Positions 37,556 through 60,919 of a stretch of 64,000 nucleotides of DNA are shown here, one piece after another. Position 1 is the first letter of the stretch. Each line of letters begins with the position of its first letter. The notes beneath the pieces are model-generated. The model did no database searches and had not been told where the DNA came from. It worked only from the letters and a program-made list of their open reading frames with translations. Made by a program: the position numbers and the translations under genes. The stretch comes from Armatimonadota bacterium (GTDB taxonomy: Bacteria; Armatimonadota; UBA5829; DTJY01). Location: positions 2,711,217 to 2,775,216 of the forward strand of contig OY760504.1 in the NCBI GenBank assembly GCA_963663705.1. The letters run 5' to 3'.

Positions 37556-37578
37556 CATCGGAAAGGGAACGAGTAGAG

Positions 37579-39584: not shown

Positions 39585-39830
39585 AAGCAGTGCACCGACT
39601 TTCCCTGGTTTTTTGCACGCATCGGCTGCTCGTACGATCCGTGCCTTGTATGCCGCCGAGAATCTCCTGCGTCCACTCGTCGCCGATACCTTCGGATCGG
39701 GAGTGTTTACAGATGCCGGATTACCTGATGCATCTAACTTGTTTGAATCCATTCCATGCCTCCTCGCCCTCTACACTAATTATACACTGGAGGCTGTTTC
39801 ATATATATTGACACAGAGGGTAGGCCCGAT
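39585..39830 (-). repeat. 245-bp direct duplicate of the IS3 5' terminus plus the first 56 codons of orfA (a second copy is at 40983-41218)
   Basis: Near-identical nucleotide runs, aagcagtgcaccgact ... ggctgtttcatatatattgacacagaggg, in both places. Confidence 0.8.
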
Positions 39831-40773
39831 CAAGCGTTTCGTTGCGAGCCTGGCTGACCGATTCGGCCATGCCATAGTGAACCATCTCCGGCGTCAGCAG
39901 GGCTATCCTGGAGTGATGATGCTCCTGATTATACCAATCGAAGAAGGTACCGCAGAATCCTCGTGCATCTTCGATGCTGCCGAATCTCTCCGGAAACTCC
40001 GGCCGGTATTTCATCGTCTTGAAATGGCTCTCCGAGAACGGGTTGTCATTTGATGTATACGGTCGGCTGTGCGTCTTGGTCGCCCCAAGGTCCGAGGGTA
40101 GCATCGCTACACATTTCGATCTCATAGATGAGCCTCGATCGGCATGGAGCGTGAGCTGCTTCGGGTCTGCTTCCTGTTTCCGTATAGTTTCACTTATCAG
40201 ATGCTTTGCCAACTCTGCGTTCTCCCTATATGCGATCATCCAGCCCACTACGTATCTGCTGAATACGTCGATGATCACGTAGAGATAGAAGTAGGTCCAC
40301 TTTGCAGGGCCTTTGAGTTTGGTTATATCCCAACTCCAGAGCTCGTTCGGCCGGGTGGCAAGCAACTCGGGTTTGGCATATTCTCCATGCTTTGTCTGGT
40401 TTCTGCGTTCACGGACTTCTTCGTTCTTATTGAGAATCCGATACATCGTGCTGATCGAGCAGAGGTAGACGCCTTCATCGAGAAGTGTGGCGTAGATCTC
40501 TGATGGTGGCATGTCCACGAACCTCTCGGAGTGCAAAACATCCAGAATGTGATCCCTTTCATTGTCAGATAGGGCACGCTCAGGCGTGATCGACTCTCTT
40601 GGTGGGACTGGATTGTCTTTGCGCTTCCAGAACCGATATGCCGATGCACGTGCGATACCCAACGCCCGACAAGCCTTTGTCCAGTTTGTAATGGAAGCCA
40701 GTCTCTTCGCAGCTTCCATTATTTCTCCTCTTCGGTCGAGATGCTCGTCGGAGCTATTCCAAGAATCTCGCAC
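39799..40773 (-). CDS. IS3-family transposase OrfB (integrase core), expressed as an OrfAB fusion by -1 frameshifting
   Basis: 324 aa; DDE motif. It overlaps orfA by 55 nt in the -1 frame. Confidence 0.85.
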   Translation of the reverse strand: MRDSWNSSDEHLDRRGEIMEAAKRLASITNWTKACRALGIARASAYRFWKRKDNPVPPRESITPERALSDNERDHILDVLHSERFVDMPPSEIYATLLDEGVYLCSISTMYRILNKNEEVRERRNQTKHGEYAKPELLATRPNELWSWDITKLKGPAKWTYFYLYVIIDVFSRYVVGWMIAYRENAELAKHLISETIRKQEADPKQLTLHADRGSSMRSKCVAMLPSDLGATKTHSRPYTSNDNPFSESHFKTMKYRPEFPERFGSIEDARGFCGTFFDWYNQEHHHSRIALLTPEMVHYGMAESVSQARNETLDRAYPLCQYI

Positions 40774-41344: not shown

Positions 41345-42490
41345 CACTTTATCAGGCAACTTTCACGGCATCGGCTTCAAACTCCACCGGGCTCTTGTAT
41401 CCAAGGTATGAGTGCATCCGTTGCCTGTTATAGAACACTTCTATAAAGTTGAAGATTTCCCTTCTTGCCTCATCTCGGGTAGTGAACTTCTTTCTGTATA
41501 TCAGTTCTTTTTTCAGGGTGCAGAAGAAGCTCTCTGCCACGGAATTGTCCCATGGATCTCCTTTCCTGCTCATAGAACACCTCATCTGGTGATTCTTAAG
41601 CAGTCTCTGATACTCCTTGCATGCATATTGGCCCCCTCGATCCGAATGGTGGATCAATCCTTCTTTCGGTCGCCGCGTTGTTACCGCCATTGCGAGCGCA
41701 TCCTGGGCGATCCTGCTCCTGAGACTTTTGCCCATAGACCAGCCGATTACCCGGCGTGAATACAGATCTATCACGCTCGAAAGAAACAGCCATCCTTCAT
41801 CTGTCCATATGTACGTGATATCGCTTACCCATACCTTGTTTGCGGCATCCACACGGAAGTCGCGCATCAGCAGGTTCGGATATACTTGGAATCTATGGTT
41901 TGAATCGGTTGTTATTCGGAAACGCCGCCGTCGCCTTGGGGCTATCCCAAGCTTACGCATAATCTTGCATATACGCCGCCTGCTGCAGTGTATGCATTCT
42001 CTTCGCATCTGTCGGCAAATTCTTCGGCTGCCGTACCTATCCCACTGTTTTTGAATATCGCAAGTACTTTGGAGCAAAGCATTTCTTCCTGTGCATCTTT
42101 TCGATTGGCAGCTATTGCCCATTGATAGTAGCCGCTTTTCGAAACTTTCAGCACTTTACACATGACGACGATATGGAACTGCTTGCTGTTTTGGCTGATG
42201 AACCGGTATCTCATCGCAGTTCCTTCGAGAAGATACCGATTGCTTTTTTTAGTATATCCCGCTCTTCAGTGACGCGGGCGAGCTTACGTCTCAGTCGAAT
42301 CAGTTCTTCGTGTTCGCTTGGCGCAATAGGCTTTTTGCCGTCCGGCCTTGTGCCGAACTCTCTCACCCATCGGCTCAGGACGTTCGGTGCGACCCCCAGT
42401 TCCCTGGCAATTTGGGATGTGCTCTGGTCACTTTGTTCTACAAGTCGGACCGATTCTGCTTTGAATTCATTTGTCTATTGTCTTTTTTTC
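41345..42490 (-). mobile_element. Second, different IS3-family element; degenerate (orfA start frameshifted, orfB split)
   Basis: orfB core 41352..42122 has DRGGQY and GDPWDNSVAESFFCTLKKE. The orfB N-terminal part (CKVLKVSKSGYYQW) is in another frame at 41942..42214. The orfA-like VEQSDQSTSQIARELGVAPNVLSRWVREFG lies at 42250-42455 and has no in-frame start. Confidence 0.7.
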
Positions 42491-42499
42491 ACTTGGTTT

Positions 42500-44003
42500 C
42501 CTCGCTCATATTATACGACTCTTTCCAAGTGTCCGTTTTAGGGGTTCCTTTCCAGAACTGACCGGTTTCCCTGGCGAGCCAAATCTTTTGTCGGTGGAAG
42601 GCCGGGTCATTTGCGATTCGTTGAGCCGTTCGGGAGATTTCTCATGCGCGGACAGCCTGGTCAATCAGATTTACCACAATATCTACTGGAGCGTCAGGGG
42701 TAACTACAGAAGCATACCGACAGATTGCCCTCAGAGAGATGAACGCCAGGGATGGTTTGGAGATAGATGCCAGGTATCCAGGGGGGAAATGTACCTTTTC
42801 GATACGGCGGCGATGCATACGAAATGGTTGAGAGACATAGAAGATTCTCAGCGTGAAGATGGTTCTCTTCCAGATCTGGCTCCGGCTTATTGGGCCATCT
42901 ACTCTGGCAGTATAACCTTCCCGGTTACCTTCGTGGCAATAGCGGGGCATCTGTATGATCTATATGGCGATACCCGCATCATTGAGACTCATTATCCTGC
43001 AATGAAAAAGTGGGTGGAGTCGATAAGTCTGAAAATGAAGGATTTCCTAATGCCGGATGACACCTATGGCGATTGGTGCGTTCCTCCGGAGTCTCTTGAC
43101 ATAATATGGTCAGAAGATCCGGAGCGAGTAACGGACAGGTCCTTGGTTTCTACCGCATATTTCTACAAAACCTTGAATTTGCTTTCTGGATATGCAAATA
43201 TTCTTGGAAAATCTGAAGACGCGGCGGAGTTCTCAGATTTGGCAGCAAAGGTCAAAGCCGCCTTTAACGGAAAGTATTTCAATAACGATGGGAATTTCTA
43301 CGGTAACAACAATACTCAGTCTTCAGGCATACTAACCTTGGCTTTTGGGCTTGTGAATGAGGAGCAGAAGCAAGCAGTTGTGGAAAATCTTGTAAGCAAT
43401 ATCCTGGTAAAGAATGAATGCCATATAGGCGCCGGTATGATGGGCGCTCAATGGATGATGCGCGCGCTCTCCGACAATGACAGGTCCGACATAGCTTGCA
43501 AGCTTCTATTCCAGACGACATATCCCGGCTGGGGATATATGCTTGGCGCAGGCGCGACCACCTTCTGGGAATTGTGGAATGGAGATAAGGGCGATCCGCT
43601 TATGAACTCCGGCAACCACGTTATGCAAATAGGCGACCTGTGCATTTGGTTGTACGAATACGTTGCAGGCATTGCGCCCGATAAATCAAAACCCGGTTTT
43701 AAACATATCATTATGAATCCCATAGCATTAGAGGAATTCAGTTCTGCAAAAGCTTCCCATAAATCCATGTATGGCAATATAACAAGCGAATGGAAGATCG
43801 TAAAGTCCTCTTTCGAGTGGGAAATCTGCATACCGGTGAATACATCGGCCACTGTCTATCTGCCAGCGAAAAATCCAGAATGCGTTGCCGAAAGCGGAAA
43901 CTCTTTAGCAGATGTGGAAGGCGTACGTTTTGTCGAAATGTCTGGAGACCGCAGTGTTCTTGAATTAGGCTCGGGTTGTTACTCATTCGTATCCGAATTT
44001 TAA
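42500..44003 (+). pseudogene. 5'-truncated GH78 alpha-L-rhamnosidase (C-terminal catalytic half only)
   Basis: The diagnostic SIPTDCPQRDERQGWFGD motif is present. Homology starts right at the IS3 boundary. The roughly 400-aa N-terminal part is absent. The ATG at 42471 is a spurious start. Confidence 0.7.
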
Positions 44004-44302: not shown

Positions 44303-45214
44303 CTACAGTTCGACCTTCAGCAGCCCTTCGAATGCCGGGTAGTTCTTCTTCACATGCAGTTCTTCCATCCACTTGCGCACGACTAGTGACAGCCATGGGC
44401 CTGTATTCACACCCTTGCCAGAATCGTTGTTCCACAGCCACTCGGGAGCAGGGGTAAGGCAGTACTTGGGGCTCACCGCCTTGTAAACATCTTGGAGCAC
44501 ACCGGTCTGTCCGTGGTGAGCCATCTGCACGTAATCAGATTTCAGGTATTTGGCATACGGACTTACTAAAAGCTTCTTACCACCCTCGACACCGAGGTCT
44601 CCGAGGAAGAGAACGGACTTCTTGCCTGCGATCATCTTCACGACAAGACTCGACTCGTTGTAGGCATTTCCGGTGAACTCAGGGTTCTTCGCACTGAGGA
44701 CCGTAAACCTTACACCGTCTACGACAAACTTCATGCCAGGCTGAACATCAGTGACCGGTATCCCTGATTTAGTAACGTTTGCGTAGAACTCTTCGGTGAA
44801 GGGCATGTATTCGGGCTCGACTTTCGTGTACCAGTCACGGTCGAAGATCGATTCGTAGATGCGGTCAATCTTGAGATCGTTCTGCGCTTTCAGGATATCG
44901 TTCAGAACCCCTGCGTGGTCGGGGTGCGGGTGGGTCACGATCCAAGCATCCACTCTGTTTCCCATCGCCGCTAGAAACCCGCGCAGGTAAAGTGCTTCCT
45001 GTGGGAAACCGCCGTCTACGACTACAATGCGGGCGTTTTCCGTGCGTATGACATACGACATAGATGGGCCCATTGGGCTGCTCTCCGGCAATTGCCACAT
45101 GGTTACCCCAGACTTTCCGCCGATTACCGGAGCACTGATAGCCAAAGATCCTAAGGAGGCTACGCAGGCTACAAACATGGCAACAAGCACTGCATATTTT
45201 GAAATCCGTCTCAT
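44303..45214 (-). CDS. Secreted MBL-fold metallo-hydrolase
   Basis: HxHxDH motif (THPHPDHAG). Signal peptide MRRISKYAVLVAMFVACVASLGSLAISA. Confidence 0.7.
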   Translation of the reverse strand: MRRISKYAVLVAMFVACVASLGSLAISAPVIGGKSGVTMWQLPESSPMGPSMSYVIRTENARIVVVDGGFPQEALYLRGFLAAMGNRVDAWIVTHPHPDHAGVLNDILKAQNDLKIDRIYESIFDRDWYTKVEPEYMPFTEEFYANVTKSGIPVTDVQPGMKFVVDGVRFTVLSAKNPEFTGNAYNESSLVVKMIAGKKSVLFLGDLGVEGGKKLLVSPYAKYLKSDYVQMAHHGQTGVLQDVYKAVSPKYCLTPAPEWLWNNDSGKGVNTGPWLSLVVRKWMEELHVKKNYPAFEGLLKVEL

Positions 45215-45325
45215 GTTTGTTCCTTCCACAAAGTCTCTACAGGCGCAAAGCATCTTTCTACAATTTTCTGATTCGTGTTTATAAGGCTCAGTTCTCATGG
45301 TGGGTCATATAACCCGCAAACACTG

Positions 45326-46159
45326 TTATTGTTTCATGCCGGTCATGGTCATGCCCTGGATAAACGTCTTTTGTGCGAAAAAGAAAATCACTATTATAGG
45401 GAGTACGAAGAGCGTCGACATAGCCATCAGCCGTCCGAAGTACGATCCGAATTGCCCCATGAACATCTGCAAGCCGAGCGTAAGAGGGTAGCGTGACTCG
45501 TCGAACAGGTATATCAACGGCTGCAGGAACTCGTTCCACATCCCCATGAACGTGAAGAGCCCAACCGTAGCGAGCGCCGGTTTTGCGAGCGGCAGCATAA
45601 TCAACCTGTATATCTGAAACTCGCTGCATCCGTCGAGCCTTGCGGCTTCGCTCAAGCCCTGTGGTATCGTCATAAAGAACTGCCGGAGCAGGAAGATGTA
45701 GAACGGAGTGCCGAAGAACGCAGGTACTATCATCGGCAGGTATGTGTCTACCCAACCCAGTTTTGTAAATATATTGAATAACGGCACCATAACTACCTGA
45801 TACGGAATAATCATCGTAGAGAGCAGTACCCAGAAGATCGGCTCCCGAGCCTTCCACTGTATTCGTGAAAGCCCGTAAGCGACTAGCGAACATGAGATCA
45901 GCGTCCCTATGACGGTCGGGATGCATATCAGCAGGGTGTTTGCGAGATACAGACCGAACGGTATGCTCTCGAGCCCCTTTTTGTAGTGTTCCATCGTAAC
46001 CGGATGAGGTACTATCTGCGGCGGCCAGATGTTTATGTTGGCATTGGTCTTGAAGGATGTCGACACCAGCCAGTAGAACGGTATCGCAAAGATAAGGCTC
46101 ATCAGTATGAGGGCTGTATATGAGCCGATTTTCGCGGAGAGGGACATCTTCCTGCCCAT
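45326..46159 (-). CDS. Carbohydrate ABC transporter permease (MalG-like)
   Basis: EAA loop GLSEAARLDGCSEFQIYRLIMLP; six TM-like hydrophobic stretches. Confidence 0.8.
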   Translation of the reverse strand: MGRKMSLSAKIGSYTALILMSLIFAIPFYWLVSTSFKTNANINIWPPQIVPHPVTMEHYKKGLESIPFGLYLANTLLICIPTVIGTLISCSLVAYGLSRIQWKAREPIFWVLLSTMIIPYQVVMVPLFNIFTKLGWVDTYLPMIVPAFFGTPFYIFLLRQFFMTIPQGLSEAARLDGCSEFQIYRLIMLPLAKPALATVGLFTFMGMWNEFLQPLIYLFDESRYPLTLGLQMFMGQFGSYFGRLMAMSTLFVLPIIVIFFFAQKTFIQGMTMTGMKQ

Positions 46160-47059
46160 TTAACTTCCCCCTTGATAGTAGATGTGTTTCGACGACGTCT
46201 TGAAGATGATGATAGTCGCGGCGAGCACCACCAGAAAGAGTAACCACGCCATCGCACAAGCATACCCCATTTTGAAGAAATGGAAGGCGTTCTGGAAGAG
46301 GTACATCGCATAAAAGAGAGTCGAGTTTGCAGGCGCTCCTGTCCCGGAGGTCATGACGTACGCTTGTGTGAAATACTGAAACGAACCGATGACTCCCATC
46401 ACGAATATAAAGAATATATGCGGGCTCATGAACGGAAGCGTTATGTGCCGCATCCGGCTGAACGAGGACGCACCGTCGAGTTCCGCCGCCTCGTAGAGCT
46501 CCTGAGGAACGTCCTGCAGCCCGGCAAGGAATATGATCATCGACGACCCGACACCCCAGGTGCTCATCAGTACAAGCGCCGGTTTCGCCCAGAGCGGGTC
46601 TGACATCCAGCCGGGGCCGCTGATATGTGCGAGGCGCAGCAGCCCGTTCAGTATCCCGTACTGCGGGTTCATCACCCACATCCAGAGCACCGAACTCGCG
46701 ACTATGGGTACGATGCTCGGCAGGTAGAATATCGTCCGAAAGAACGCGAGGCCTTTCACTCTCTGGTTGAGCAGGAGCGCGAGAAAAAAAGCCACTGCAA
46801 TCCCGAGCGGCACGGAGCCAATCGCATATATGAGAGTGTTCATGATCGACTTAACGATGAGTGGATCGTGAGTCATCTGCTTGTAGTTCGCCAGGCCGAT
46901 CCACGTAGGGGGCTTGAGCCCGGAGTAGTTGCAGAAGCTGTAGTAGATCGATATAGCTATCGGATAGACCATGAACACCAGCAAACCAATAATCGAAGGC
47001 ATGGTAAAAAGAAGTCCGTTTATCGTATTTCGGCGTTCGGTACTGGAGATCTTTGTCAT
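46160..47059 (-). CDS. Carbohydrate ABC transporter permease (MalF-like)
   Basis: EAA loop ELYEAAELDGASSFSRMRHITLPF. Confidence 0.8.
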   Translation of the reverse strand: MTKISSTERRNTINGLLFTMPSIIGLLVFMVYPIAISIYYSFCNYSGLKPPTWIGLANYKQMTHDPLIVKSIMNTLIYAIGSVPLGIAVAFFLALLLNQRVKGLAFFRTIFYLPSIVPIVASSVLWMWVMNPQYGILNGLLRLAHISGPGWMSDPLWAKPALVLMSTWGVGSSMIIFLAGLQDVPQELYEAAELDGASSFSRMRHITLPFMSPHIFFIFVMGVIGSFQYFTQAYVMTSGTGAPANSTLFYAMYLFQNAFHFFKMGYACAMAWLLFLVVLAATIIIFKTSSKHIYYQGGS

Positions 47060-47069
47060 TCTCTTCCTC

Positions 47070-48428
47070 TTATCGTCCGGAGAGCTTCAGGTCGAGTTCG
47101 TGCTGCGTCTCGACGGTAGCATCGTCTAGTGCCTGCTTCGGGGTCTTCAATCCATAGAGCGCAGCGCTCACTGCACGATCCAGCGCTCCGGTGTAGTATG
47201 CCTGAGCAGGCATCACCGGGCGCTGATGCTTGCATCGCTGCATTATCTCAATAAATCTAGCATATTTGGAGTTCGCATGGACCTCCGTGAAGTAGGGCGA
47301 TTTTCGGTAACCCGGAAGGATTGCCATAGATCGGCCTACAGTCGAAGTTCCCTTCGGGTCGGCGCACATCCAGCGGATGAACTCCCACCCGAGTTCCGGA
47401 TGCTTGCACCCCTTCGGCAGGGCAAGACACCACCCGCCAATCCAGGACGATCCCGTTTCGCCTCCCGCAGGACCAGGCACAAGCCCTAACCCGTAGTCGA
47501 GGTTCGGGGCGTAGATCTCGGCATCCTTTACGGAGCCCATCATATAGCAGGTCATAGCAACCTGCCCAATGCAGAACGGGTCTTTATCGAGAGTCCCGAA
47601 GCCCTGCTGCATGCTACTTACTTTCGTTACATCGTACTTCTTGGCGTAAGAGCACATCCAGGCCAACGCGCGGACGATCTTCGGATCGTTTGCGGTGATC
47701 TTGTGACGTTCCTCATCGTAGAAGCTCCCCACGAACGCCCAGCCCCACGTGTACAGCGAGTTAGCTAGTCCAGCTTGGTTCCACGGTATGATGGCCATCG
47801 ACTTCAGGTCGCTTGAATCTCTCCTAGTCAACCGATCGGATATGCGGTCGAGCTCTTCGATCGTCGCAGGCGGTTTATTCGGGTCAAGACCGGCTTTCCG
47901 AAACGATTCCTTGTTCCAGGCAAAAGCAAAGTTCGGATCAGCACAGAACGTTGCAGCCCAGGTGTGTCCGTTGTAGTTGCACTGCTTCCAGCAAGGTGGA
48001 AAATAGTCGTCGCTTGTTATGCCTTCCTTTGCCATGAAAGCATCAAGAGGTTGGATTGCGCCCTGTTCCGCCCACTCTGCTACCTGTGGGCCGTCTACAA
48101 AGGTAACATCCGGCGCTTTTCCCGCGGCTATCGCCGTAAAAAACTTCTGGCTGTTCGATGTGTCGTTTGGAGTAAAGACCAAACGTACCTTGATACCTGG
48201 ATGAGCGGCCTCAAAACCTCGAACCGCTTTCTCCAGGTTCTCTTTATACGTGCCGCCGAAGACCTGCCAGACCACTAGTTCGTTCGCTGGTGCTTCTCCT
48301 ATTCCAAGTAGCCGCGACGAAAGAAAGGATGATACCTCTGACCACCCAAACCGCAGAGTTATCATACTAAAAACGACTATTATGATGATCGGCCAGCAAT
48401 ATATCTTTGTTTTCATGAGCAACTCCAC
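47070..48428 (-). CDS. ABC transporter extracellular solute-binding protein (family 1, sugar)
   Basis: N-terminal hydrophobic anchor; 452 aa; sits upstream of the two permeases. Confidence 0.75.
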   Translation of the reverse strand: MELLMKTKIYCWPIIIIVVFSMITLRFGWSEVSSFLSSRLLGIGEAPANELVVWQVFGGTYKENLEKAVRGFEAAHPGIKVRLVFTPNDTSNSQKFFTAIAAGKAPDVTFVDGPQVAEWAEQGAIQPLDAFMAKEGITSDDYFPPCWKQCNYNGHTWAATFCADPNFAFAWNKESFRKAGLDPNKPPATIEELDRISDRLTRRDSSDLKSMAIIPWNQAGLANSLYTWGWAFVGSFYDEERHKITANDPKIVRALAWMCSYAKKYDVTKVSSMQQGFGTLDKDPFCIGQVAMTCYMMGSVKDAEIYAPNLDYGLGLVPGPAGGETGSSWIGGWCLALPKGCKHPELGWEFIRWMCADPKGTSTVGRSMAILPGYRKSPYFTEVHANSKYARFIEIMQRCKHQRPVMPAQAYYTGALDRAVSAALYGLKTPKQALDDATVETQHELDLKLSGR

Positions 48429-48601
48429 GAATTGAGCATAATCGCTATTTCACGCTGCCAAGTGAGTTGAAACGGTCCTCTGGTCAACCATCAAGGACAA
48501 AGATGGCTCACTTCTGCGCTGACACAACTGATCAGGTTGAAGGCAAATTCCAGACCGGCGCAAGCAGTATTGAGACATCGCCTTACGCACAGGAAGATGG
48601 G

Positions 48602-49351
48602 TTATAGCCAGCTTGCCAGTACAGCTGCGTCCTGAAGAAACATTGCAGGATCGTCATCTTTGACAAATTCTATCAAAGCAAAATGATCCTGGTCGTCGGA
48701 TACAAGTTCTGAGAGGTAAGTTTGCCATTCAGTCTGTCCTTCTCCAAGCATGAGGCGAGTGCAATCGTATTCCCAGGAGAAAACATGCACATTCGTAAGC
48801 CAGGGTAGAACTGTTCTCAAACCATCCAGACGGTATTCGAATCCCTTCCCGACCGGTGGCTGCCAGTATGCCTTGACGGCACGATGATCGATTGATGTCA
48901 ACAACCTTACAGCCGAAGCGTTTGTATCGGTCAGCGTATTTCCGTGGAATTCAAAGGAAACCGTGATACCCAGAGCCGCCGCCATATCTCCAATCCTGCG
49001 AGATTCGGCGACTATGGTATTCCAATACGCCTCATCTGCTTGGGCCGAACTCCGGTCTCCCGCCCAGACGCGTATGGTAGGAGCATTAAGCTCAGCCGCC
49101 GTCTCAAGCACAGCATCAAACGATATACTTGATTCGCTTCCCACACAATAGTAGGAGCCATAGGCTGCCACGCGAAGCCCGGCATGCTGGGTCATGAGGC
49201 CTACTTCACGCGCAGTATGTAAATCACCGTGCGGAACATGGATATCTCCACCCCACTCAATCGCCGACAATCCTGATGTTGAAACCAGATCCACTATTTC
49301 GGCTGATGATAGCTGTCGAAATGTTACCGAAACCAGGCCTGCTTTTACCAT
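48602..49351 (-). CDS. Sugar phosphate isomerase/epimerase (xylose-isomerase-like TIM barrel)
   Basis: Family pattern, 249 aa. Confidence 0.65.
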   Translation of the reverse strand: MVKAGLVSVTFRQLSSAEIVDLVSTSGLSAIEWGGDIHVPHGDLHTAREVGLMTQHAGLRVAAYGSYYCVGSESSISFDAVLETAAELNAPTIRVWAGDRSSAQADEAYWNTIVAESRRIGDMAAALGITVSFEFHGNTLTDTNASAVRLLTSIDHRAVKAYWQPPVGKGFEYRLDGLRTVLPWLTNVHVFSWEYDCTRLMLGEGQTEWQTYLSELVSDDQDHFALIEFVKDDDPAMFLQDAAVLASWL

Positions 49352-49366
49352 AATAGCTAATCACTC

Positions 49367-50359
49367 TCACGCAAGTATTTTTGACTTCTCTCTATCAATA
49401 GACCAGATTAGCTTCTTGCCGTTCAGGTAACGCTTCAATTCTTCCACCATATAGCGTCCCATGCGTCTGCACTCCGCACCTAGTGAACCTGCGATGTGTG
49501 GAGTGAGAACCACATTAGGCAGCGTATAGAGAAGCGAACCATCCGTCGGAGGCTCAGGCCATGTCACATCCAGCACGGCTACGATATCCTGACGATTCTT
49601 CAGTACCTCGATCATCTCTTCCTCACGAACCACGGCGCCTCTTGCTGTGTTTATAAAACTGGCATAGGGTTTCATGGATTCAAAATGTCGTCCTGAGATC
49701 ATTCCTTCCGTATCTTTAATCCACGGGGTGTGGACAGAGACAACATCAGATGTCTCGAAGACTTCGTCAAGTGAACCCAGCTTGGCCTTCGAATTCGGGA
49801 GATCTCTTTCGCTTGCATACGGATCGAATGCGATTATATTCACATCGAAGTTTGAGAGTAGTTCGCAAACACGACGGCCGATCATACCCAGTGAGAGAAT
49901 CCCTACGGTACTCCCATATGCTCCGGCAGTTTGAATCGAAATGGGGTACTTATGATCTCGTTTAATGGCAAGCATATGATGCCAGCCGCACTTAAGGCAA
50001 AAGAGAATCTGTGACAGCGCGAACTCGGCGACTGGCAAGGCGTTCGCAGCATAGGCACTCGTAATTACTACACCCCTGTTCCAGAACGCTTCAGAGACCA
50101 TATCCCGTATCGACCCTGCACCATAGAATACCGCCTTGAGGTTTGGGGCTGCGTTCAGAAACTCTTCGTCTATGGGCGGAGCACTCCATGTTGTGAAAAT
50201 AAGCTCCACATCTCGCAGAACCAAAGGATCTTTCTTGATAGAATAACTATTCTGAACTGGGGCGTAAATATCGACCAAGCTTTCTATTTCTTCTCTTTCA
50301 GCTTTTCCATACACGAGGTCAAATATATCGGAATTCATTATATAGAGGGCCTTAAGCAT
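49367..50359 (-). CDS. D-isomer-specific 2-hydroxyacid dehydrogenase family, NAD-binding
   Basis: GILSLGMIGRRV Rossmann motif; catalytic-domain pattern. Confidence 0.8.
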   Translation of the reverse strand: MLKALYIMNSDIFDLVYGKAEREEIESLVDIYAPVQNSYSIKKDPLVLRDVELIFTTWSAPPIDEEFLNAAPNLKAVFYGAGSIRDMVSEAFWNRGVVITSAYAANALPVAEFALSQILFCLKCGWHHMLAIKRDHKYPISIQTAGAYGSTVGILSLGMIGRRVCELLSNFDVNIIAFDPYASERDLPNSKAKLGSLDEVFETSDVVSVHTPWIKDTEGMISGRHFESMKPYASFINTARGAVVREEEMIEVLKNRQDIVAVLDVTWPEPPTDGSLLYTLPNVVLTPHIAGSLGAECRRMGRYMVEELKRYLNGKKLIWSIDREKSKILA

Positions 50360-50402
50360 AACATATCTCCTTGCAGTACTGCCAGGAATCTTTCTCTGGA
50401 GT

Positions 50403-51044
50403 CTATATTTGACTAACCTTGGCTGAATCTAGTAGAGACATAATTTCAACTGCTAATGTCCGTATGCTGGCGTAATCTTCACGGGCAATCGATTCTTTGG
50501 GAGCAAGATTTGTTCCTAAGCCAACAGCCATTGCTCCAGCCGCAAACCACTCCCTGATGTTATTTCTGTCTACTCCGCCGGTTGGCACTATATTGATTCC
50601 TGGGAACGGTCCACGGAGCGACTTCATATGCCCGATACATCCAGTAGAACCGGGGAACAACTTATAGACTTTCGTCTCAAGCCTCATCGCTTGGTAGACC
50701 TCTGTCGGAGTAAACACACCCGGCATCACCAGGATGTTGTTGTCATTCCCCCACGTCACTATCTCTGGAACTAAACACGGGCTTACGATATACTTCGCCC
50801 CAGCAGCTACTGCATCCTTTGCATCTTTGAGGTTAAGCACAGTTCCTGCCCCGATTACTATATCATCACAGCCTGCACACTTCTCGATAATTCTCAACGG
50901 GGCTTCGTTTGTGAATGTCACCTCTATAAGATTCACTCCACCGTCGATAAGTGCATCGACGGTTCGTATCACCTTTTCCGTCGAATTTCCTCGCAACACA
51001 GCGATTATTTTTCCATGCTTTATCAGTTTAATAATGTTTTCCAT
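50403..51044 (-). CDS. eda: KDPG / 4-hydroxy-2-oxoglutarate aldolase (Eda family)
   Basis: IIAVLRG ... GVNLIEVTF ... IGAGTVL ... SPGL-like blocks. The alternative start at 51077 would overlap the upstream gene. Confidence 0.75.
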   Translation of the reverse strand: MENIIKLIKHGKIIAVLRGNSTEKVIRTVDALIDGGVNLIEVTFTNEAPLRIIEKCAGCDDIVIGAGTVLNLKDAKDAVAAGAKYIVSPCLVPEIVTWGNDNNILVMPGVFTPTEVYQAMRLETKVYKLFPGSTGCIGHMKSLRGPFPGINIVPTGGVDRNNIREWFAAGAMAVGLGTNLAPKESIAREDYASIRTLAVEIMSLLDSAKVSQI

Positions 51045-51048
51045 AGTA

Positions 51049-53016
51049 TTATTTATATATCCAGATTTCTCCTTCACGGTAATCTATCCAAGCGGTCTCA
51101 AACCAGCTTACATCCTCGGGTATAGGCTTGATATTTTCATCGACAACAGAAATATCGGGTCCAATCACCTTTACTCTTTGCTTGCGATCCGCCATGCGTT
51201 CCATGCGATAGGAAAAGAGTATCCCGGCACTGCTCTCAACAGGAATCATATTTGGCCCCACATCTTTTACTAAGTACGAACCCCTGCTTCCACCGCCATT
51301 CTCAATATACCGGTCTGCTGAGGAGAGGAAGGCCAGATGAGCGAGCATCAGATTCTTCGTTATCCATGCCTCTACCAAATGCGAGCAGTTTTCTGCTGAG
51401 ATTTTGATATTTTGCTCGAGTTGTGCTTCAGCAAGTGTAGATCGGAGGGTTTCCGGCTCACGGATGAACCCACAGGCACTGTTCATCCTGCTCTGTATAT
51501 TGGCGCGAATGGAGACATGATTCGTTCCGCCGGCGCCAAGCATCCTGCGGCTTTCATTGAGAGCAGCCTTTGCCGCTTCTTCTATTATGGAAGACGTATC
51601 TTCGGCATGAGTCTCATTCTTCCGACTGCTGATATACTGTGCAACCCTTATACCACCTACCTGCCCGGAGTTCAGCGCTGATCCTCCCGGACGTGCCACC
51701 CCGTGTACTCCTGCCACTTCACCTATGGCGAAAAGGTTTGCGATATCGGTCTGGTAAAGGCTGTTTACCCTAAGTCCGCCATTGTTGTGTTGGAAAGATA
51801 CAGCTATCTCAAGCGGTTCGCGCAGGTCGATGCCATTCTCACTATAGATGTCGATGCTCATGGGGTTCATATGCAGTAGACGCTCGTACGGAGTTGGCTG
51901 CAGGGCTCCGGACGCGCTAAGGTAGTCTCTAGCCTCGGGGACCATGGCTTGTATATCGAAGATCTCATCGCCATATTTCGGATTTTCCATGAAGTCCATG
52001 TATACACGCCTGCCTGCTCGGAGTTCTAGCTCTACCGCAATATCCACGAGTGATGAACCGAAGTTATGGGCTCGGTTGGCCGAGAACGGCCACTGATAGC
52101 CTTTAAGGAAGATGTTTGACGCCATTTCGGGGAGGTCACGGTAGTAGTCTGCAAGGAAGTTGTAGCATCGTCCTTCCGAGTCTTCACTGAAGTAGGATGG
52201 TACGACCTGCTGATACGTGCCGGACAGGTTCCACCGGAACTTTGCGGATGTTATTCCAAATTGAGACTCGCCGAGGTTTACTGCGCTGGCGCCTGCCTCA
52301 AGCGCGACCCCATGTAAGCTTACCTGGCCACGCGGATATACGGATGATGAGTAAAGTTCGCCCGGTCCACCGGTAGCCAGTATGATATTCTCAGCGCAAA
52401 ATAGCGTCATCCCCATGTGTTCTCTATCAACTTCCTTTGAGTTGATTGCAACCAGTCCGCAGATCCGCTTGTCTTTTTCTCCTGTGGTCACCAGCTTTAC
52501 GACTGTCATATCTTCAAGCACAGGGATGTTGCTCTCCCGGGTTTTGCGAAGGGATGTTTCTACCATAAATTTTGATGTTTTGGGCCCGGCACTTGTTGCT
52601 CTCTGCCTGGGGTCATGATCGGTCTTGTAGCCTACGAATGCCCCATAGGAGTTGAATGGGAATGGCACGCCATTCTCCACAAGGTGAAAGAACGCAGGGA
52701 GTGAGTAAAGGCTTTCGATGTATGCTAGATCCCCATCCATACATCCGCCATCGAAGAGACTATGCGCCATCTCAGCGGGGCTGTCCGTCACATCTCCAAA
52801 GACGCTCATTTTGTAATATGTTTGCTTGTCTGAACCTGAACAGTAAGATGTTCCACCGTACAGGTTGGATGTGATAATGACAACATCTGTTACTCCGGCA
52901 TTATACAACCGTTCGGCACAGTTCAATCCGGCTGCACCACTGCCTACCACCAGGGTATGGCACGTGTACATATCGAGCCACAGTCCATTCTCCAATTCAA
53001 TTCGAATCTTTTCCAT
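51049..53016 (-). CDS. FAD-dependent oxidoreductase, succinate dehydrogenase / fumarate reductase flavoprotein-like
   Basis: HTLVVGSGAAGLNCA dinucleotide-binding motif; 655 aa with FrdA/SdhA/NadB-like architecture. Confidence 0.6.
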   Translation of the reverse strand: MEKIRIELENGLWLDMYTCHTLVVGSGAAGLNCAERLYNAGVTDVVIITSNLYGGTSYCSGSDKQTYYKMSVFGDVTDSPAEMAHSLFDGGCMDGDLAYIESLYSLPAFFHLVENGVPFPFNSYGAFVGYKTDHDPRQRATSAGPKTSKFMVETSLRKTRESNIPVLEDMTVVKLVTTGEKDKRICGLVAINSKEVDREHMGMTLFCAENIILATGGPGELYSSSVYPRGQVSLHGVALEAGASAVNLGESQFGITSAKFRWNLSGTYQQVVPSYFSEDSEGRCYNFLADYYRDLPEMASNIFLKGYQWPFSANRAHNFGSSLVDIAVELELRAGRRVYMDFMENPKYGDEIFDIQAMVPEARDYLSASGALQPTPYERLLHMNPMSIDIYSENGIDLREPLEIAVSFQHNNGGLRVNSLYQTDIANLFAIGEVAGVHGVARPGGSALNSGQVGGIRVAQYISSRKNETHAEDTSSIIEEAAKAALNESRRMLGAGGTNHVSIRANIQSRMNSACGFIREPETLRSTLAEAQLEQNIKISAENCSHLVEAWITKNLMLAHLAFLSSADRYIENGGGSRGSYLVKDVGPNMIPVESSAGILFSYRMERMADRKQRVKVIGPDISVVDENIKPIPEDVSWFETAWIDYREGEIWIYK

Positions 53017-53049
53017 TTTCTACCTTACTAATCTGCTTTTTCGATATGC

Positions 53050-53817
53050 CTAAAGCCGTCTCAGATGAAACCCGCCATCTATGTTGAAAACCTGCCCGGT
53101 GGAGTAGGCGAACGCCTCGCGAGCGATTGCCAGAACTGCCTCAGCGATGTCCTCCGGTTCGCCCCACCGGCGTATAGGGAGCAAGTTCTCCTCACCAATT
53201 AATTCGTCGTACCTGGCGCTGACTGTATCGGTCATAGGGGTTCGTATTATTCCCGGTCGAAGCTCGTAGACGTTTATTCCATATTCTGCAAGACGGTCGG
53301 CAAAGAGCTTTGTCATCATGCTCACGCCTGCTTTGGAGATACAGTATTCGCCTCTTGATACCGACGATGTGTATGCGGACATGGAGGATATGTTGACGAT
53401 TTTTGGATTCGTCACTATTTGACCTGCCACTAATTCGATCATGCATTTCGAAAGGAGTTGTGTCAGGAAGAACGGACCTTTCAGGTTGATTGCCATGACC
53501 CGATCGTAGCTTTCCTCTATCATCGCAAGGATGTCCATTCGCTTTGCTGGCGCTACTCCGGCGTTGTTGACGAGGAGATCGAGCCTGCCAAAGTTATCCA
53601 TGATCTCCCCGGCAATTCTTTCTCTGTCCTCGCTGCTGCTTATATCCGCATGGATGTAGACATGTTTTTCTCCGGCAATCTCTTTCAGAGTGCCTGCGAT
53701 CTCAGATTCATCTCTCAAATCGACTATCGCTATGTGAAATCCATCGGCGGCTAGTGCCTTTGCAATGGCAAATCCGATCCCTGATGCTGCACCCGTAACG
53801 CATGCTACCTTATTCAT
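53050..53817 (-). CDS. SDR family short-chain dehydrogenase/reductase
   Basis: [20 protein letters not shown] cofactor motif; YxxxK (YCISK) catalytic motif. Confidence 0.85.
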
Positions 53818-54940
53818 TCCAGTGGCCTTCCTTCAATATGCAGGCAACAAGCCCATCATATGGGTCTAGTATCAACTTATGGAAGACTTTCTCCAATTTC
53901 GAACCACTCGATTTCGCAAATGGTTTGTCAACCCTGCCCATGACATAGCTCAAGATCTGAACATTCTCTGCTCCAGCCTTCATATACTCATAGACATCTC
54001 TACCGGAGTAGACTCCTCCTGTTGCGGAGATCGGTAATTTTGGAAAACTATCTCTTATCGTACGAATCTGTTTAAGATTCCTTTGTCTCAATTCTTCACC
54101 ACCATGCCCCGACTTGTACTCGGGATTGTATATTCTGTTGCCAACCACCAGCCCATCTGCTCCACCTTCGATAGCGGCTTCAGCCATACTGGTCTGAAAT
54201 CCTATGCCCCACTCAAGGTTCAGGATTTTGGGAAAGACTTTCATATCGGGAACTGCGCGTTTGATGTATGATGTACATGTTCTGTACCAGCGAAGTACAT
54301 TTTCCTGGTCTGCTGTATAGTTATCGCCGAGGAGAAACGGGCAGAAGTCGATCTCTACATGCTTGTATCCGATTTCCCGATACAACGCACTCGTATATGT
54401 CCATTCGTCCTCGATAAAGTCTTCACCCGGGAACGGCAGGTGGCACAAGAAGGATGCTATCACGAAGAACCTGTTTGACTCTTCGTGAGCTTTTGCATTC
54501 CCTGCGAATTCCTTGTACTCATGCAAGCACCGGTCGTCGAGCCTCCCATCCCAATGAATTATCGGGCGTTCTCCGGCAGTATCACCTGGATTGAAGAATG
54601 TACGGACGACACTGGGTTTCTTTCGCTGGACGATCATCGAGCATCTGCCGTCTGCTCCCTCGCCGACCACGGACTTGAGTACGGCGCCCGCATATCCGGA
54701 ATGTTTGATAGCTTGCATCTGCGTTAGATTGACTGTCATAGATCCTGGAGCGATAAGCAGGGGGTTCCTGATTGGGATATCCAGGTACCTGCTTCCCAGA
54801 GAAATTCCGTATGCCTGCTCGACGGCATCGACGCAGCCATCTAACGGGTGCACGGTGTAGTATCTAAACAAATCTTTTAAAAACCTGATGTTCCTCGACA
54901 TATAAAACGCCAAAATCGGCAATTGGCCGATCTCCTCCAA
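53810..54940 (-). CDS. Dihydroorotate dehydrogenase / dihydropyrimidine dehydrogenase-like flavin TIM-barrel oxidoreductase
   Basis: [28 protein letters not shown] (compare the NLSCPN motif) and [28 protein letters not shown] blocks mirror class 1 DHOD/PreA. Confidence 0.55.
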
Positions 54941-54967
54941 TGTTTTGCTAGTAACCCATGTTACGCG

Positions 54968-55017
54968 CCAGCCGTAAGTTCTTAAAGCTACTTGTAAGCG
55001 CTTGCTAGTGCAGAGCG
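54968..55017. promoter_or_regulatory. Conserved about 50-nt intergenic block containing the AAGCGCTT palindrome (paralogous block at 59721-59770)
   Basis: gccagccgtaagttcttRaagctRNttgtaagcgcttgctagYgcaga is shared by the two sites. The core TAAGCGCTTGC also occurs at 8583-8593. Confidence 0.4.
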
Positions 55018-55251
55018 GTACAGCTTGGCCTTCACGGCAAAATGGTTCAACCTGTGCGCTGTGCTAAGAATTGCCAGCTTTGCGTAAGCGTATATGCTGG
55101 CGAAGAAATGGTTGCCTTGAGTCGTCACCGTTTTTGTCGGTGATTTTGCAAACGATGCGTTGGATTTTTTGGAGTTGTGATACTCTTCGACCTTATCGCA
55201 ACCCCCATCGGCTTGTTCGAACCTATTTTCCAGTCATTACATATCGCCTGC

Positions 55252-55288
55252 TGGTTGGCTAACCTGCAGGCGATATGCGCAACGTGAG
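55252..55288. promoter_or_regulatory. Perfect 12-bp inverted repeat, catatcgcctgc-N13-gcaggcgatatg; a degenerate copy lies at 59894-59930
   Basis: Seen directly. It lies 32 nt 3' of the minus-strand 55320 gene stop and about 310 nt upstream of the 54940 operon start. Confidence 0.4.
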
Positions 55289-55319
55289 TTACCTCATTCT
55301 TAGAGATCGTTCAATCTTT

Positions 55320-58886: not shown

Positions 58887-59549
58887 CTAGTCCCCCTCAT
58901 AGTTGATCAGGAAGCTTATGTGGTACGGAGCGTGAATCGTTGCGTCGGTACGGGGATCGTTGATAACTCCCTGTGCCTCAGCGAGATTTTTGTACCATTT
59001 GACATGACCGTCACCGAAGACGATATTGTCGCCGCCGCTGTGCCTGTCCCCCTGGCAGTAAGCGAAATTGTTACAGTAGTTTGGCATGTCCAATGTGTTC
59101 GCCCAACGCCACCACGGCTCGTCGTCTTCCAGCATCACTACCCACTGCGCGGGGCATTTGACGGCCGAAAGGGGCACCCCGTCAATAGCCACACCCATGG
59201 GGAACTGTCCGACGCTCTGGTTCGGAAGATAACTCAGGTAGCCGCTCGAATCTGTTGCATAAGGATCGCTCGGGCAGCGTTTTAAGCCCTTGCTTTTTAT
59301 GTACGGTTCGAGAACGACCGCCCACGACGGGCTGGAGCCACCGCAGGGGAAGAACTTCTCGTCGTAATCCTGCAGGTACATCATGGTAGCAGTACCTATC
59401 TGCTTCATGTTGCTCTGACAACTCACTTGCCTTGCCTTCTCTCTGGCCTTGGCAAATACAGGGAAGAGAATTGCTGCCAGGATTGCTATAATAGCAATTA
59501 CGACTAGCAACTCAATGAGAGTGAAACCTTTTCTTCTTGTACACTTCAT
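58887..59549 (-). CDS. DUF1559 / H-X9-DG prepilin-type N-terminal domain protein
   Basis: [41 protein letters not shown]; C-terminal FGDGHVKWY. Confidence 0.85.
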
Positions 59550-60073
59550 TTCTTTTCCTCCATTTCGTAGTGTGAATTACTGTTCCGAAAAACCATTACT
59601 ATGCCGGTTTTTTCTACTCTGCCACCCCCTTTCCCAAAACCTTGCCATATCCTTTGCCGAATCGTTTTGGCAAAAATAGCTAAATAACTTACGTTAAGCG
59701 CCAGATAGGTTCGTAGTCATGCCAGCCGTAAGTTCTTGAAGCTGATTGTAAGCGCTTGCTAGCGCAGAAAGCCCTGTGGCCGTAGTGGCGTCAAAGGAAC
59801 AGATAAGATAGTCAGAGTATAGATCGAGCATGTGTGCTTCATATAACTATTTTATCACAACGCCAACTGGCTGTTCCACCGATTTTCTAGTCATTACATA
59901 TCGCCTGCTGCTGGCTAACCTGCCAGACAGGTGCGTAGCGAGCTAGTAAATCAATTATAGGTTCATATCGCTATATGCACAATAGTCGATATTTAGTTTG
60001 GACATATTTTTTGTTTGTTGACTAATCTTCATTTTTGTCTATAATTTACATAGGTGTTTTGAAGAGAGTTTAT

Positions 60074-60919
60074 ATGGAGAGAAAGACCATGTTGAAAGCA
60101 AGCACGGCTTGGGATGATTTGCTTTTGGAATTTCGAAATCCCACCTTCATCTTCGGAGAAGAGATCCTGCAAGAGCGGATGCACAGTATAGCTGAGCATA
60201 AGCACGATTATTATCAAATGGATTACTTCAATCACGGTCGAGGCAGGATTGCTATTGCAGGCAAAGAGTATATTGTCATGGCGGGCGACATCTTTATCTG
60301 TAACCCAGGAGACAGACATGAGATTTGTTGTTTCAAGTCAGAGCCTGTCGAACGCATTATGGTAAAATTCAATCCATCGGTGGGTGACGCTAAGAATCAT
60401 GTTTTTCCAAACTATATCGGCAACTTGGGTCTACTGCCGCACGACCAGCAGAAGGAATTGGAACACAATCTGCGTCGGGCATGTATAGAGGCAAATAAGG
60501 ATAATGTCTTATTATCCATAGCTCTTTTCACCGTATTCTTCCTGTCCATGATCAGTTACCTCCGAGATGCCTCTCTATTGGTGAAGTCGGGTTGCATCGA
60601 GGGCCGAAACCATCGCATCATGGATTACCTGAAACGAAATTACAACAGACCGATTACTCTTTCAGACCTGTCAAATCTGACCGGCTTGCATCCTCAATAT
60701 CTCTGTCACCAGTTCTCTATGGAGATGGGTATCCCTCCGATGGCTGCACTCACCAGACACAGGATACAGGTCTCCAAGAAACTACTTATCAATACCAATC
60801 TGCCGATCAACGAGATAGCTGTCAGAGTTGGCTGCGAAGATGTGTACAACTTTTCCAAACGATTCAAGATGATAGAGGGTCTTTCTCCACTAAACTGGAG
60901 AAAAAAACATTCCAGTTGA
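60074..60919 (+). CDS. AraC family transcriptional regulator (cupin plus HTH)
   Basis: C-terminal AraC HTH (LTGLHPQYLCHQFSMEMGIPPMAALTRHRIQVSKKLLINTNLPINEIAVRVGCED). GC is lower than in surrounding genes. Confidence 0.75.
   Translation: MERKTMLKASTAWDDLLLEFRNPTFIFGEEILQERMHSIAEHKHDYYQMDYFNHGRGRIAIAGKEYIVMAGDIFICNPGDRHEICCFKSEPVERIMVKFNPSVGDAKNHVFPNYIGNLGLLPHDQQKELEHNLRRACIEANKDNVLLSIALFTVFFLSMISYLRDASLLVKSGCIEGRNHRIMDYLKRNYNRPITLSDLSNLTGLHPQYLCHQFSMEMGIPPMAALTRHRIQVSKKLLINTNLPINEIAVRVGCEDVYNFSKRFKMIEGLSPLNWRKKHSS

Follow-up and report, generated by a model that had tools for sequence, protein, structure and literature searches.

The described pathway that comes closest to the locus reported here is the KduI-KduD-KdgK-Eda pathway of unsaturated-uronate catabolism, and the enzymes closest to its two flavoproteins are class 1 dihydroorotate dehydrogenase (DHOD) and dihydropyrimidine dehydrogenase (DPD) for one and the SdhA/FrdA/NadB superfamily, including the soluble fumarate and urocanate reductases, for the other. 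Here, we present a computational analysis of a ten-gene operon in a 64,000-nucleotide stretch of an Armatimonadota genome (contig OY760504.1, positions 2,711,217 to 2,775,216; hereafter the window). Ten minus-strand open reading frames (ORFs) fill 44303-54940 of the window and encode, in the order of transcription, a DHOD/DPD-like FMN protein (DHODl), a short-chain dehydrogenase/reductase (SDR), an FrdA-like FAD protein, an Eda-type aldolase, a 2-hydroxyacid dehydrogenase (2HADH), a TIM-barrel enzyme, the substrate-binding protein (SBP) and two permeases of an ABC transporter, and a secreted metallo-beta-lactamase (MBL)-fold hydrolase. This gene order and all family assignments, proposed in a first-pass annotation made from the DNA alone, were borne out by Pfam and NCBIfam, and a public gene call made independently on the identical contig (L134) agrees on the ten genes. 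We tentatively favor the reading that the first six genes constitute a conserved cytoplasmic module for the breakdown of a glycan-derived acid, either a carboxylated sugar or a sugar-like ring acid, and that the last four genes, i.e., CUT1-type ABC uptake and the secreted MBL hydrolase, are a lineage-specific front end.

The locus resembles the KduI-KduD-KdgK-Eda pathway in its Eda-type end, in the PfkB (KdgK-like) kinases of related clusters, in its SDR, which is broadly related to KduD, and in its association with polysaccharide lyases whose products are 4,5-unsaturated uronates. It differs in that KduI and DhuI are lacking and in that the two flavoenzymes are the most conserved components. 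Moreover, the SDR fails the KduD models (TIGR01832, 162 versus a cutoff of 338.85; NF005390, 165.8 versus 369), and we rejected the canonical KduI/KduD pathway on these scores and on the absence of KduI. An operon that delivers a sugar acid to an Entner-Doudoroff-type aldolase is known; the candidate novelty lies in two uncharacterized enzyme families at its center.

The two flavoproteins

DHODl (53810..54901, minus strand) is a TIM-barrel protein of 363 amino acids. The first-pass annotation had placed its start at a TTG at 54940; based on the public gene call and the sequence, the ATG near 54901 is the likelier start. The match to Pfam DHO_dh is weak (39.2 bits versus a gathering threshold of 27) and confined to the C-terminal phosphate-binding part, and the best PDB sequence match has an E value of about 1e-3. 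DHODl misses all NCBIfam PyrD models (19-39 bits versus cutoffs of 200-619) as well as the PreA model NF006183 (40 versus 335), and its best NCBIfam score is 42 bits versus a cutoff of 303. Its AlphaFold2 (AF2) model (pLDDT 94.8) has the FMN domain of pig DPD and DHODs as top Foldseek matches (TM 0.63-0.65, 18-20% identity). In a profile alignment, K76 corresponds to K43 of DHODA and K574 of DPD; K225 is the conserved FMN Lys, as in PfDHODH; and the phosphate motifs G267-G268 (GG) and T294-G295-G296 (TGG) are all invariant. C187, the single invariant Cys, lies in an 'EIDFCP' segment and aligns to the catalytic Cys130 of Lactococcus lactis DHODA ('ELNLSCP'; the sequence was checked against 1DOR) with an hhalign probability of 78%.

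The substrate side of the active site is different. From the Asn set that binds orotate (DHODA N67, N127, N132, and N193), N255 alone is kept (corresponding to N193 and to DPD N736); D185 is at the N127 position, the N132 position is not Asn, and the 'GLPN67' segment of DHODA has become G119-x-x-D122-x-R124. Three invariant Arg residues (R93, R124, and R256) are gained. DHODl is like class 1 DHOD and DPD in its TIM-barrel fold, FMN Lys, GG and TGG motifs, and Cys at the base position, and unlike them in the replacement of three of the four Asn residues for the substrate, in its additional invariant Arg residues, and in the lack of both a PyrK or PreT partner and an Fe-S domain; Pfam scans found no Fer4 match in DHODl and no PreT-like gene in the operon. 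Judged by these residues, DHODl probably keeps the hydride and proton transfer of DHOD and DPD and applies it to a different, probably anionic, substrate. It also differs from DHOD and DPD in its sugar-catabolism context and in belonging to a tiny family from uncultured lineages only. A word-indexed search returned 92 clusters, every one labeled hypothetical; an exhaustive HMM search returned 35 representatives at E<=1e-30 among 1.84 billion; and among 185,579 species genomes, DHODl occurs in metagenome-assembled genomes (MAGs) only (TA06, Omnitrophota, Ratteibacteria, Latescibacterota, and Bathyarchaeia).

The FAD protein (51049..53016, minus strand) is a cytoplasmic flavoprotein of 655 amino acids from the SdhA/FrdA/NadB superfamily (Pfam FAD_binding_2, 79 bits). 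Its scores of 94-122 bits on the NadB and TfrA models stay far below the cutoffs (450-720, and up to 930 across the curated models of the superfamily), and it falls short of TIGR00551 for NadB (93.5 versus 452.75) and TIGR01812 for SdhA/FrdA (84.5 versus 567). The top Foldseek matches of its AF2 model (pLDDT 87.9) have the FrdA/SdhA architecture (TM about 0.67, 17% identity). In contrast to DHODl, the FAD family is very large, with >8000 homologous clusters from Planctomycetota, Armatimonadota, Omnitrophota, and others, and a mean column identity of 58%. Among the dicarboxylate residues, the equivalents of FrdA H355 and R390 (NadB H351 and R386) are kept as H410 and R442, which are invariant in the family, while the position of FrdA H232 (NadB H244) is occupied by G254; the R287 region lies in the capping domain, whose start is not alignable to FrdA or NadB at the sequence level. 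The His for covalent FAD attachment ('RSHT') is absent, and the corresponding 'GGTSYCSGSDKQ' segment is without His. Because the His/Arg pair is retained, we suggest that the substrate of this enzyme carries a carboxylate.

Compared with SdhA, FrdA, and NadB, including the soluble fumarate and urocanate reductases, the FAD protein shares the four-domain fold and the His/Arg pair; it differs from them in lacking the covalent-flavin His, in having Gly at the H232/H244 position, and in having no Fe-S, heme, or FMN_bind partner. The protein itself is without a heme, FMN_bind, or Fe-S domain, and no SdhB/FrdB-like, Fe-S, or heme partner is encoded in the operon. nadA and nadC are absent near the FAD gene, which is adjoined by the SDR and eda genes; unlike the genes for SdhA, FrdA, and NadB, it is paired with an alcohol dehydrogenase gene. 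The first-pass view that the operon does not represent a textbook pathway still stands: we found no characterized homolog of either flavoprotein and no publication on the operon, and literature searches retrieved no characterization of either family.

A recurrent enzyme module

The contigs that carry DHODl show two main arrangements. In arrangement B, which includes the window, DHODl, SDR, and FAD genes stand together, with genes for Eda, the TIM barrel, 2HADH, and a BNR_4 protein variably attached; its hosts are represented by one MAG from Armatimonadota, two MAGs of unclassified bacteria, a genome of 8.2 Mb, and a Bathyarchaeon. In arrangement A (~17 loci), the order TIM-DHDPS-DHODl is followed by genes for DUF4838, a PL26-like PcRGLX protein, two GFO/IDH/MocA proteins, and a ceramidase-like amidase. 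The TIM protein of the window falls into one BLAST cluster with that of arrangement A, which stands beside DHDPS-DHODl in ~13 loci. Because the two share a cluster, we suggest that the TIM enzyme, a pyruvate aldolase, and DHODl form a DHODl-centered core.

From the FAD family, of which metagenomes hold >588 loci, we drew a sample of 80, added eight already known loci, and clustered the neighbors; since these 88 loci are phylogenetically related, the counts below are not independent events. Directly upstream of the FAD gene lies an SDR gene in 50/88 loci, and a Zn-ADH gene fills the same slot in another 9/88. An Eda-like aldolase is found in 28/88, a PfkB kinase directly downstream of the FAD gene in 21/88, a BNR_4 protein in 15/88, and an AP_endonuc_2 protein in 9/88. 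An FMN partner is also recurrent and comes in three forms: a protein of 450 amino acids resembling Old Yellow Enzyme (OYE) with a Cys-rich tail (22/88), an 882-amino-acid fusion of OYE with Fer4_20 and Pyr_redox_2 for NAD(P)H (15/88), and DHODl (9/88). The OYE-type (37 loci) and DHODl (9 loci) partners never co-occur among the 88 loci, which suggests non-orthologous displacement in what may be a single catalytic role; no protein of the window matches the Oxidored_FMN domain of OYE (PF00724), and the analogy between OYE and DHODl is one of function only. Recurrent operons include 'OYE-FeS-NADH SDR Eda BNR4 FAD PfkB', 'TIM OYE FAD SDR', and 'PfkB Eda SDR FAD DHODl', and the DHODl-linked FAD proteins have 43-61% identity to the FAD protein of the window.

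These comparisons redraw the borders of the system. The first-pass annotation had treated all ten genes as one pathway unit; in the related loci compared, only the six promoter-proximal genes recur, and nothing corresponding to the transporter or the MBL hydrolase is present there; these are local, lineage-specific additions. Similarly, its combination of two ene-reductase-type flavoenzymes, an aldolase, and an uptake system holds in part: an FMN C=C-redox enzyme and an FrdA-like enzyme beside Eda recur across phyla, but the uptake system does not belong to the recurrent set.

The four remaining enzymes of the module are as follows. The SDR (53050..53817, minus strand) is a classical SDR that passes NCBIfam NF009386 (PRK12745; 315 bits versus a cutoff of 250), the family name of which, '3-ketoacyl-ACP reductase', is an annotation and not a tested function; it is 58-68% identical to the SDRs of related loci, Bathyarchaeia included. 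Eda (50403..51044, minus strand) is a class I aldolase for 2-keto-3-deoxy-6-phosphogluconate or 4-hydroxy-2-oxoglutarate (TIGR01182, 194.4 versus a cutoff of 156.05; PF01081, 166.8); it has 213-224 amino acids depending on the start chosen (213 in the public gene call) and is 50-61% identical to its counterparts in loci L002 and L007. 2HADH (49367..50359, minus strand) is a D-isomer-specific enzyme (PF02826, 151 bits) that reaches no NCBIfam equivalog cutoff and has a homolog with 39% identity in the L007/L014 cluster. The TIM-barrel enzyme (48602..49351, minus strand) is a xylose-isomerase-like protein of 249 amino acids (PF01261, 47 bits) and has 59% identity to the TIM protein encoded in locus L001. 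Its sole PDB sequence match is AsbF, a 3-dehydroshikimate dehydratase (E=1.6e-6), and we infer that it is a beta-eliminase/dehydratase or an isomerase. It has zero NCBIfam matches, which led us to rule out a hydroxypyruvate isomerase or an OtnI-type role.

The pairing of a dehydrogenase with the FAD protein extends far beyond uncultured lineages. By tblastn of plasmid records, FAD homologs with 40% identity were identified in Rhizobium and Escherichia coli; for E. coli, the match covers 98% of the length. The E. coli operon, which is located between ytfB and rplI (L132, NZ_CP135245.1 179692-188615) and carried by 3153/5426 complete E. coli genomes, has a divergent TetR gene and encodes an SDR, a TIM barrel, an enoyl-CoA hydratase, a CoA transferase, the FAD protein, and a TRAP transporter. 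It shares with the window the SDR family, its SDR being the NF009386 prototype (419 bits; the window SDR is 40% identical), and the FAD family. It differs in that the CoA transferase and hydratase replace Eda, DHODl, and 2HADH, in its transporter, which is of the TRAP and not the ABC type, and in its TIM protein, which is unrelated to that of the window. The E. coli TIM barrel matches the structural-genomics entries 3qc0 and 3ju2 (E about 1e-84), and the CoA transferase is YdiF/FadX-like. In Rhizobium, the FAD gene is flanked by a GFO/IDH/MocA gene on one side and genes for a sugar kinase and an FBP-type aldolase on the other, and genes for a hydratase and a CoA transferase lie close by. Literature searches found no publications on the E. 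coli or Rhizobium FAD operons. The part common to all of these operons is, thus, the pair of a dehydrogenase and the FAD protein, and downstream processing varies by lineage.

The same observations bear on whether the flavoproteins are simply housekeeping paralogs of PyrD or of NadB/SdhA that came to lie by chance beside a standard uptake and Entner-Doudoroff operon. We regard this as highly improbable. The lack of conservation of the transporter and MBL genes with the enzymes, and a gap of about 175-185 nucleotides between the TIM and SBP genes that could house a second promoter, speak weakly for it; however, the scores fall far below the cutoffs of the curated PyrD, PreA, NadB, SdhA, and FrdA models, the neighborhood contains no pyr or nad genes, and both the DHODl-SDR-FAD triad and the larger module are found again in other phyla and domains, with the order partly shuffled and the membership kept. 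The first-pass annotation had named housekeeping orthologs in canonical contexts elsewhere as what would overturn its proposal. Instead, the orthologs of the flavoproteins sit in conserved non-canonical contexts, and scores, residues, and context together rule out PyrD/PreA or NadB/SdhA functions.

Several other genes near the module were also considered. An inositol (Iol) pathway was rejected; the downstream thiamine diphosphate (ThDP) enzyme of some loci is IlvB-like by motifs and not IolD, and because it co-occurs with UvrA, we attribute it to lineage synteny. An IF-2B/MtnA-like gene is limited to one locus set at ~43% FAD identity and, being possibly syntenic only, was not counted with the module, and a CO-dehydrogenase/acetyl-CoA-synthase set near DHODl (L017, L020, and L026, opposite strand) was judged to be lineage synteny. 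Genes of the URO-D family (uroporphyrinogen-decarboxylase/MtaA-like) adjoin DHODl-SDR in three bathyarchaeal loci (L006, L039, and L042) and in L002, and are present twofold in the archaeal loci; a possibility is that they function in O-demethylation or decarboxylation of the substrate.

A proposed route and its alternatives

The pairing of a dehydrogenase with the FAD protein, the AsbF-like TIM enzyme, the interchangeable FMN partner, and the PfkB/Eda end lead us to propose a sequence of oxidation, beta-elimination, and flavin-dependent C=C redox chemistry, for which we infer the order of the steps, the direction of the flavin chemistry, and the substrate. First, the SDR would oxidize a hydroxyl group on the ring or chain, yielding a ketone. 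Second, the TIM enzyme would eliminate water or a 4-O substituent to generate a C=C bond conjugated to the ketone and/or the carboxylate; we propose this step because AsbF, the nearest solved relative, dehydrates a cyclic beta-hydroxy-ketone carboxylate. Third, the two flavoenzymes would perform C=C redox chemistry beside the carboxylate, which the FrdA-like enzyme would bind via its retained His/Arg pair, while DHODl, with its FMN and Cys187, would act on an orotate-like enone-carboxylate, e.g., the keto derivative of a lyase-made 4,5-unsaturated uronate. Fourth, the resulting 2-keto-3-deoxy acid would be phosphorylated by a PfkB kinase encoded elsewhere in the genome and then cleaved by Eda to pyruvate and a C3 fragment. 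Fifth, 2HADH would interconvert a 2-oxo and a 2-hydroxy acid along the route. The motif O-C(COO-)=CH-C(=O) of a keto-4,5-unsaturated uronate is isosteric with the motif N-C(COO-)=CH-C(=O) of orotate, and for this reason we consider that the DHOD fold could have been recruited with Arg in place of Asn.

By analogy only, the logic of oxidation, elimination, and reduction is that of the 7-alpha-dehydroxylation of bile acids (Bai) and of 3-keto-glycoside and inosose dehydratase systems. These share with the module an SDR, an OYE-type FMN/Fe-S enoate reductase, an FAD_binding_2 flavoprotein, and a beta-hydroxy-ketone dehydratase, including an AP_endonuc_2 eliminase. The module differs from Bai-type systems in its substrate class, in the absence of sequence orthology, and in that its product goes to a pyruvate aldolase.

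The flavoenzymes could instead function as a soluble enoate/fumarate-reductase-like system that reoxidizes NAD(P)H during fermentation, with a lyase-derived unsaturated acid or fumarate as the acceptor and with the sugar genes merely co-regulated. The hosts come largely from anoxic habitats and anaerobe-rich uncultured lineages, class 1A DHODs accept fumarate, soluble FrdA-like urocanate and fumarate reductases act as electron sinks, and the 882-amino-acid OYE variant has a built-in NAD(P)H/Fe-S input module. Nevertheless, we find an electron sink rather improbable: the flavoprotein genes are repeatedly interleaved with those for SDR, Eda, and PfkB in single operons, which argues for consecutive steps; the FAD protein has none of the heme, FMN_bind, or Fe-S domains by which it could receive electrons; and the equivalent of FrdA H232, which is needed for fumarate binding, is lost.

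For the source of the substrate, related loci contain genes for PL26-like PcRGLX, GH106, RhaT, Hepar_II_III_C, UxaE, and altronate dehydratase. Pfam assigns the PL42 L-rhamnose-alpha-1,4-glucuronate lyase FoRham1 to BNR_4, and this enzyme produces an unsaturated glucuronate (PMC8377490). Because PL42-, PL26-, and heparinase-II/III-like, rhamnosidase, RhaT, UxaE, and altronate-dehydratase neighbors loosely indicate uronate/rhamnose glycans, the source glycans would most likely be uronate- and rhamnose-containing, of the gum-arabic/arabinogalactan-protein, rhamnogalacturonan-I, or ulvan type. The suggestion in the first-pass annotation of a reductive processing of an unsaturated sugar acid would fit the frequent PL42-like and PL26-like lyase neighbors.

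Several observations weigh against the reading that the module degrades a carboxylated sugar derived from glycans. Neither flavoprotein family has a characterized enzyme, and the chemistry proposed is argued from the predicted fold and retained residues; likewise, the placement of Cys187, at its hhalign probability of 78%, is short of certainty. The window operon lacks genes for a kinase, a lyase, or a GH88/GH105 enzyme. To our knowledge, canonical unsaturated-uronate catabolism requires no flavoenzyme, and, because that route uses none, the requirement for two is unexplained. The best PDB match of the SBP is 4r9f (E=7e-46), named only 'MBP1' in the search output, which we take to be a binder of neutral manno-oligosaccharides; given a neutral ligand, this relative does not point to an acidic substrate. 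In a Pfam census of 61 large neighbors of FAD homologs, no CAZyme family was dominant; these neighbors are heterogeneous, and uronate-specific genes are a minority. Finally, because the dehydrogenase-FAD pair of E. coli and Rhizobium is linked to CoA genes and not to Eda, the shared step may act on a non-sugar acid.

The strongest alternative is a module for the breakdown not of a sugar but of a carboxylated cyclitol, such as quinate, shikimate, or dehydroshikimate, or of another carbocyclic or phenolic acid related to these. The SDR would then be a quinate/shikimate-type dehydrogenase and the TIM protein a dehydroshikimate-type dehydratase, and the FrdA-like protein and DHODl would saturate or desaturate a cyclohexene-carboxylate before ring opening and aldol cleavage. 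AsbF as the sole PDB match of the TIM protein suits this scheme, although the match is weak (31 bits), as do the FrdA-type His/Arg carboxylate binding of the FAD protein and the OYE-type alternative partners, which classically reduce cyclic enones. The TRAP (organic-acid) transporter, CoA transferase, and enoyl-CoA hydratase of the E. coli operon, together with the URO-D-family genes beside DHODl-SDR in bathyarchaeal loci, also point in this direction. However, the window operon has a CUT1 sugar-type ABC system and is located in a glycoside-hydrolase-rich island, the commonest metagenome partners are the PfkB kinase, Eda, and PL42-like lyases, and no aromatic-ring or shikimate-pathway genes were seen among the related loci. 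Altogether, we consider a cyclitol acid unlikely, and our preference, tentative as it is, remains with the glycan-derived sugar acid.

The periphery of the operon and the wider significance

The genes of the operon are tightly spaced, with gaps of 0-43 nucleotides except between the TIM and SBP genes; however, the several overlaps noted in the first-pass annotation reduce to one, i.e., the 8 nucleotides shared by the DHODl and SDR genes. The eda gene probably starts 5 nucleotides past the FAD stop codon, and so does not overlap the FAD gene. The intergenic region of ~420 nucleotides upstream of the operon (54902..55319, minus strand), between the stop codon of an ORF of 1078 codons and the DHODl start, presumably carries the promoter and operator; it contains no convincing sigma-70 consensus, and consensus scans for promoters and terminators did no better than on shuffled sequence. 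An AraC-family gene is located at 60035-60919 of the window, and AraC-family genes also adjoin related clusters.

The operon has genes for the binding protein and both permeases of a CUT1-type importer. The SBP (47070..48428, minus strand; SBP_bac_1, 112 bits) has an N-terminal signal or anchor, and the BPD_transp_1 permeases are MalF/UgpA-like (46160..47059, minus strand) and MalG/UgpE-like (45326..46159, minus strand), with abutting genes. No gene for the ABC ATPase is present in the operon; CUT1 systems often use a shared, distantly encoded ATPase. The MBL-fold hydrolase (44303..45298, minus strand; Lactamase_B, 50 bits) has an HxHxDH motif and a signal peptide after M28 and resembles the C-terminal domain of ComEC, with a score of 54 versus a cutoff of 190 on the ComEC_Rec2 model.

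Upstream of the intergenic region, the ORF of 1078 codons encodes a secreted LamG-domain protein, and downstream of the operon lies a convergent GH78 gene. The first-pass proposal that the substrate is released by such neighboring secreted hydrolases found no support, as the LamG and GH78 genes are not conserved with the module in related loci. The GH78 ORF (42471-44003; TTG start; 510 amino acids) comprises the six-hairpin and C-terminal domains only, and the N-terminal GH78 domain was not found just upstream of it. Two minus-strand ORFs for insertion sequence (IS)-type integrases (rve; 39799-40773 and 41352-42122) separate the GH78 gene from a GH42-like gene; judged from this layout, the GH78 gene may have been truncated at its 5' end by IS insertion.

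The remainder of the window is rich in genes for glycan utilization. Regions 688-8521 and 26386-39525 form a glycan-utilization island with genes for four or more GFO/IDH/MocA proteins, an enolase-superfamily protein, GH39-like, GH123, and GH42-like proteins, a CBM9 protein of 1232 amino acids, and two further AraC regulators; the ORFs at 13497-15539, 34173-35387, 35656-36660, and 62001-63146 have no Pfam match. A second catabolic cluster (15867-24597, plus strand) encodes a DegT-type aminotransferase, a ceramidase_alk-like amidase, an AraC regulator, a TIM protein, a GFO/IDH/MocA protein, and three further AP_endonuc_2 barrels, and an AXE1 esterase is encoded at 10195-11154. Genes for the aminotransferase, ceramidase-like, AXE1, GFO, and TIM proteins also flank DHDPS-DHODl in loci from Omnitrophota and Ratteibacteria, e.g., L004. 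Four small DUF1559/N-terminal-methylation (type IV pilin-like) proteins are encoded at 12470-13174, 28510-29187, 29336-29947, and 58887-59549; scattered proteins of this kind are a hallmark of genomes of the Planctomycetes-Verrucomicrobia-Chlamydiae (PVC) group, in line with the taxonomy guessed in the first-pass annotation.

In its most general form, our reading would be that of a widespread flavin-dependent route for acidic sugars, in which an SDR, an FrdA-like enzyme, and an interchangeable FMN ene-reductase generate a 2-keto-3-deoxy acid for KDG kinase and Eda, starting from unsaturated uronates made by lyases, from keto-uronates, or from related ring acids. We hold this generalization to be possible but doubtful. 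If correct, the route would stand in for the isomerase and dehydratase reactions known from textbooks, DHODl would represent the first case of a DHOD/DPD fold at work on a carbohydrate, and most E. coli strains would also carry out the core SDR-FAD step. No reaction has been assigned to the FrdA-like family, although its members number in the thousands and are spread over Planctomycetota, Armatimonadota, Omnitrophota, archaea, rhizobia, and the majority of E. coli strains; the DHODl family would carry DHOD/DPD chemistry beyond pyrimidines. Definition of the pathway would close a gap that recurs when the metabolism of uncultured, glycan-degrading bacteria is reconstructed, assign a function to a common accessory operon of E. 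coli, and possibly provide new biocatalysts that reduce or introduce C=C bonds in sugar acids. Moreover, the E. coli homolog opens the core step to genetics in a model organism.

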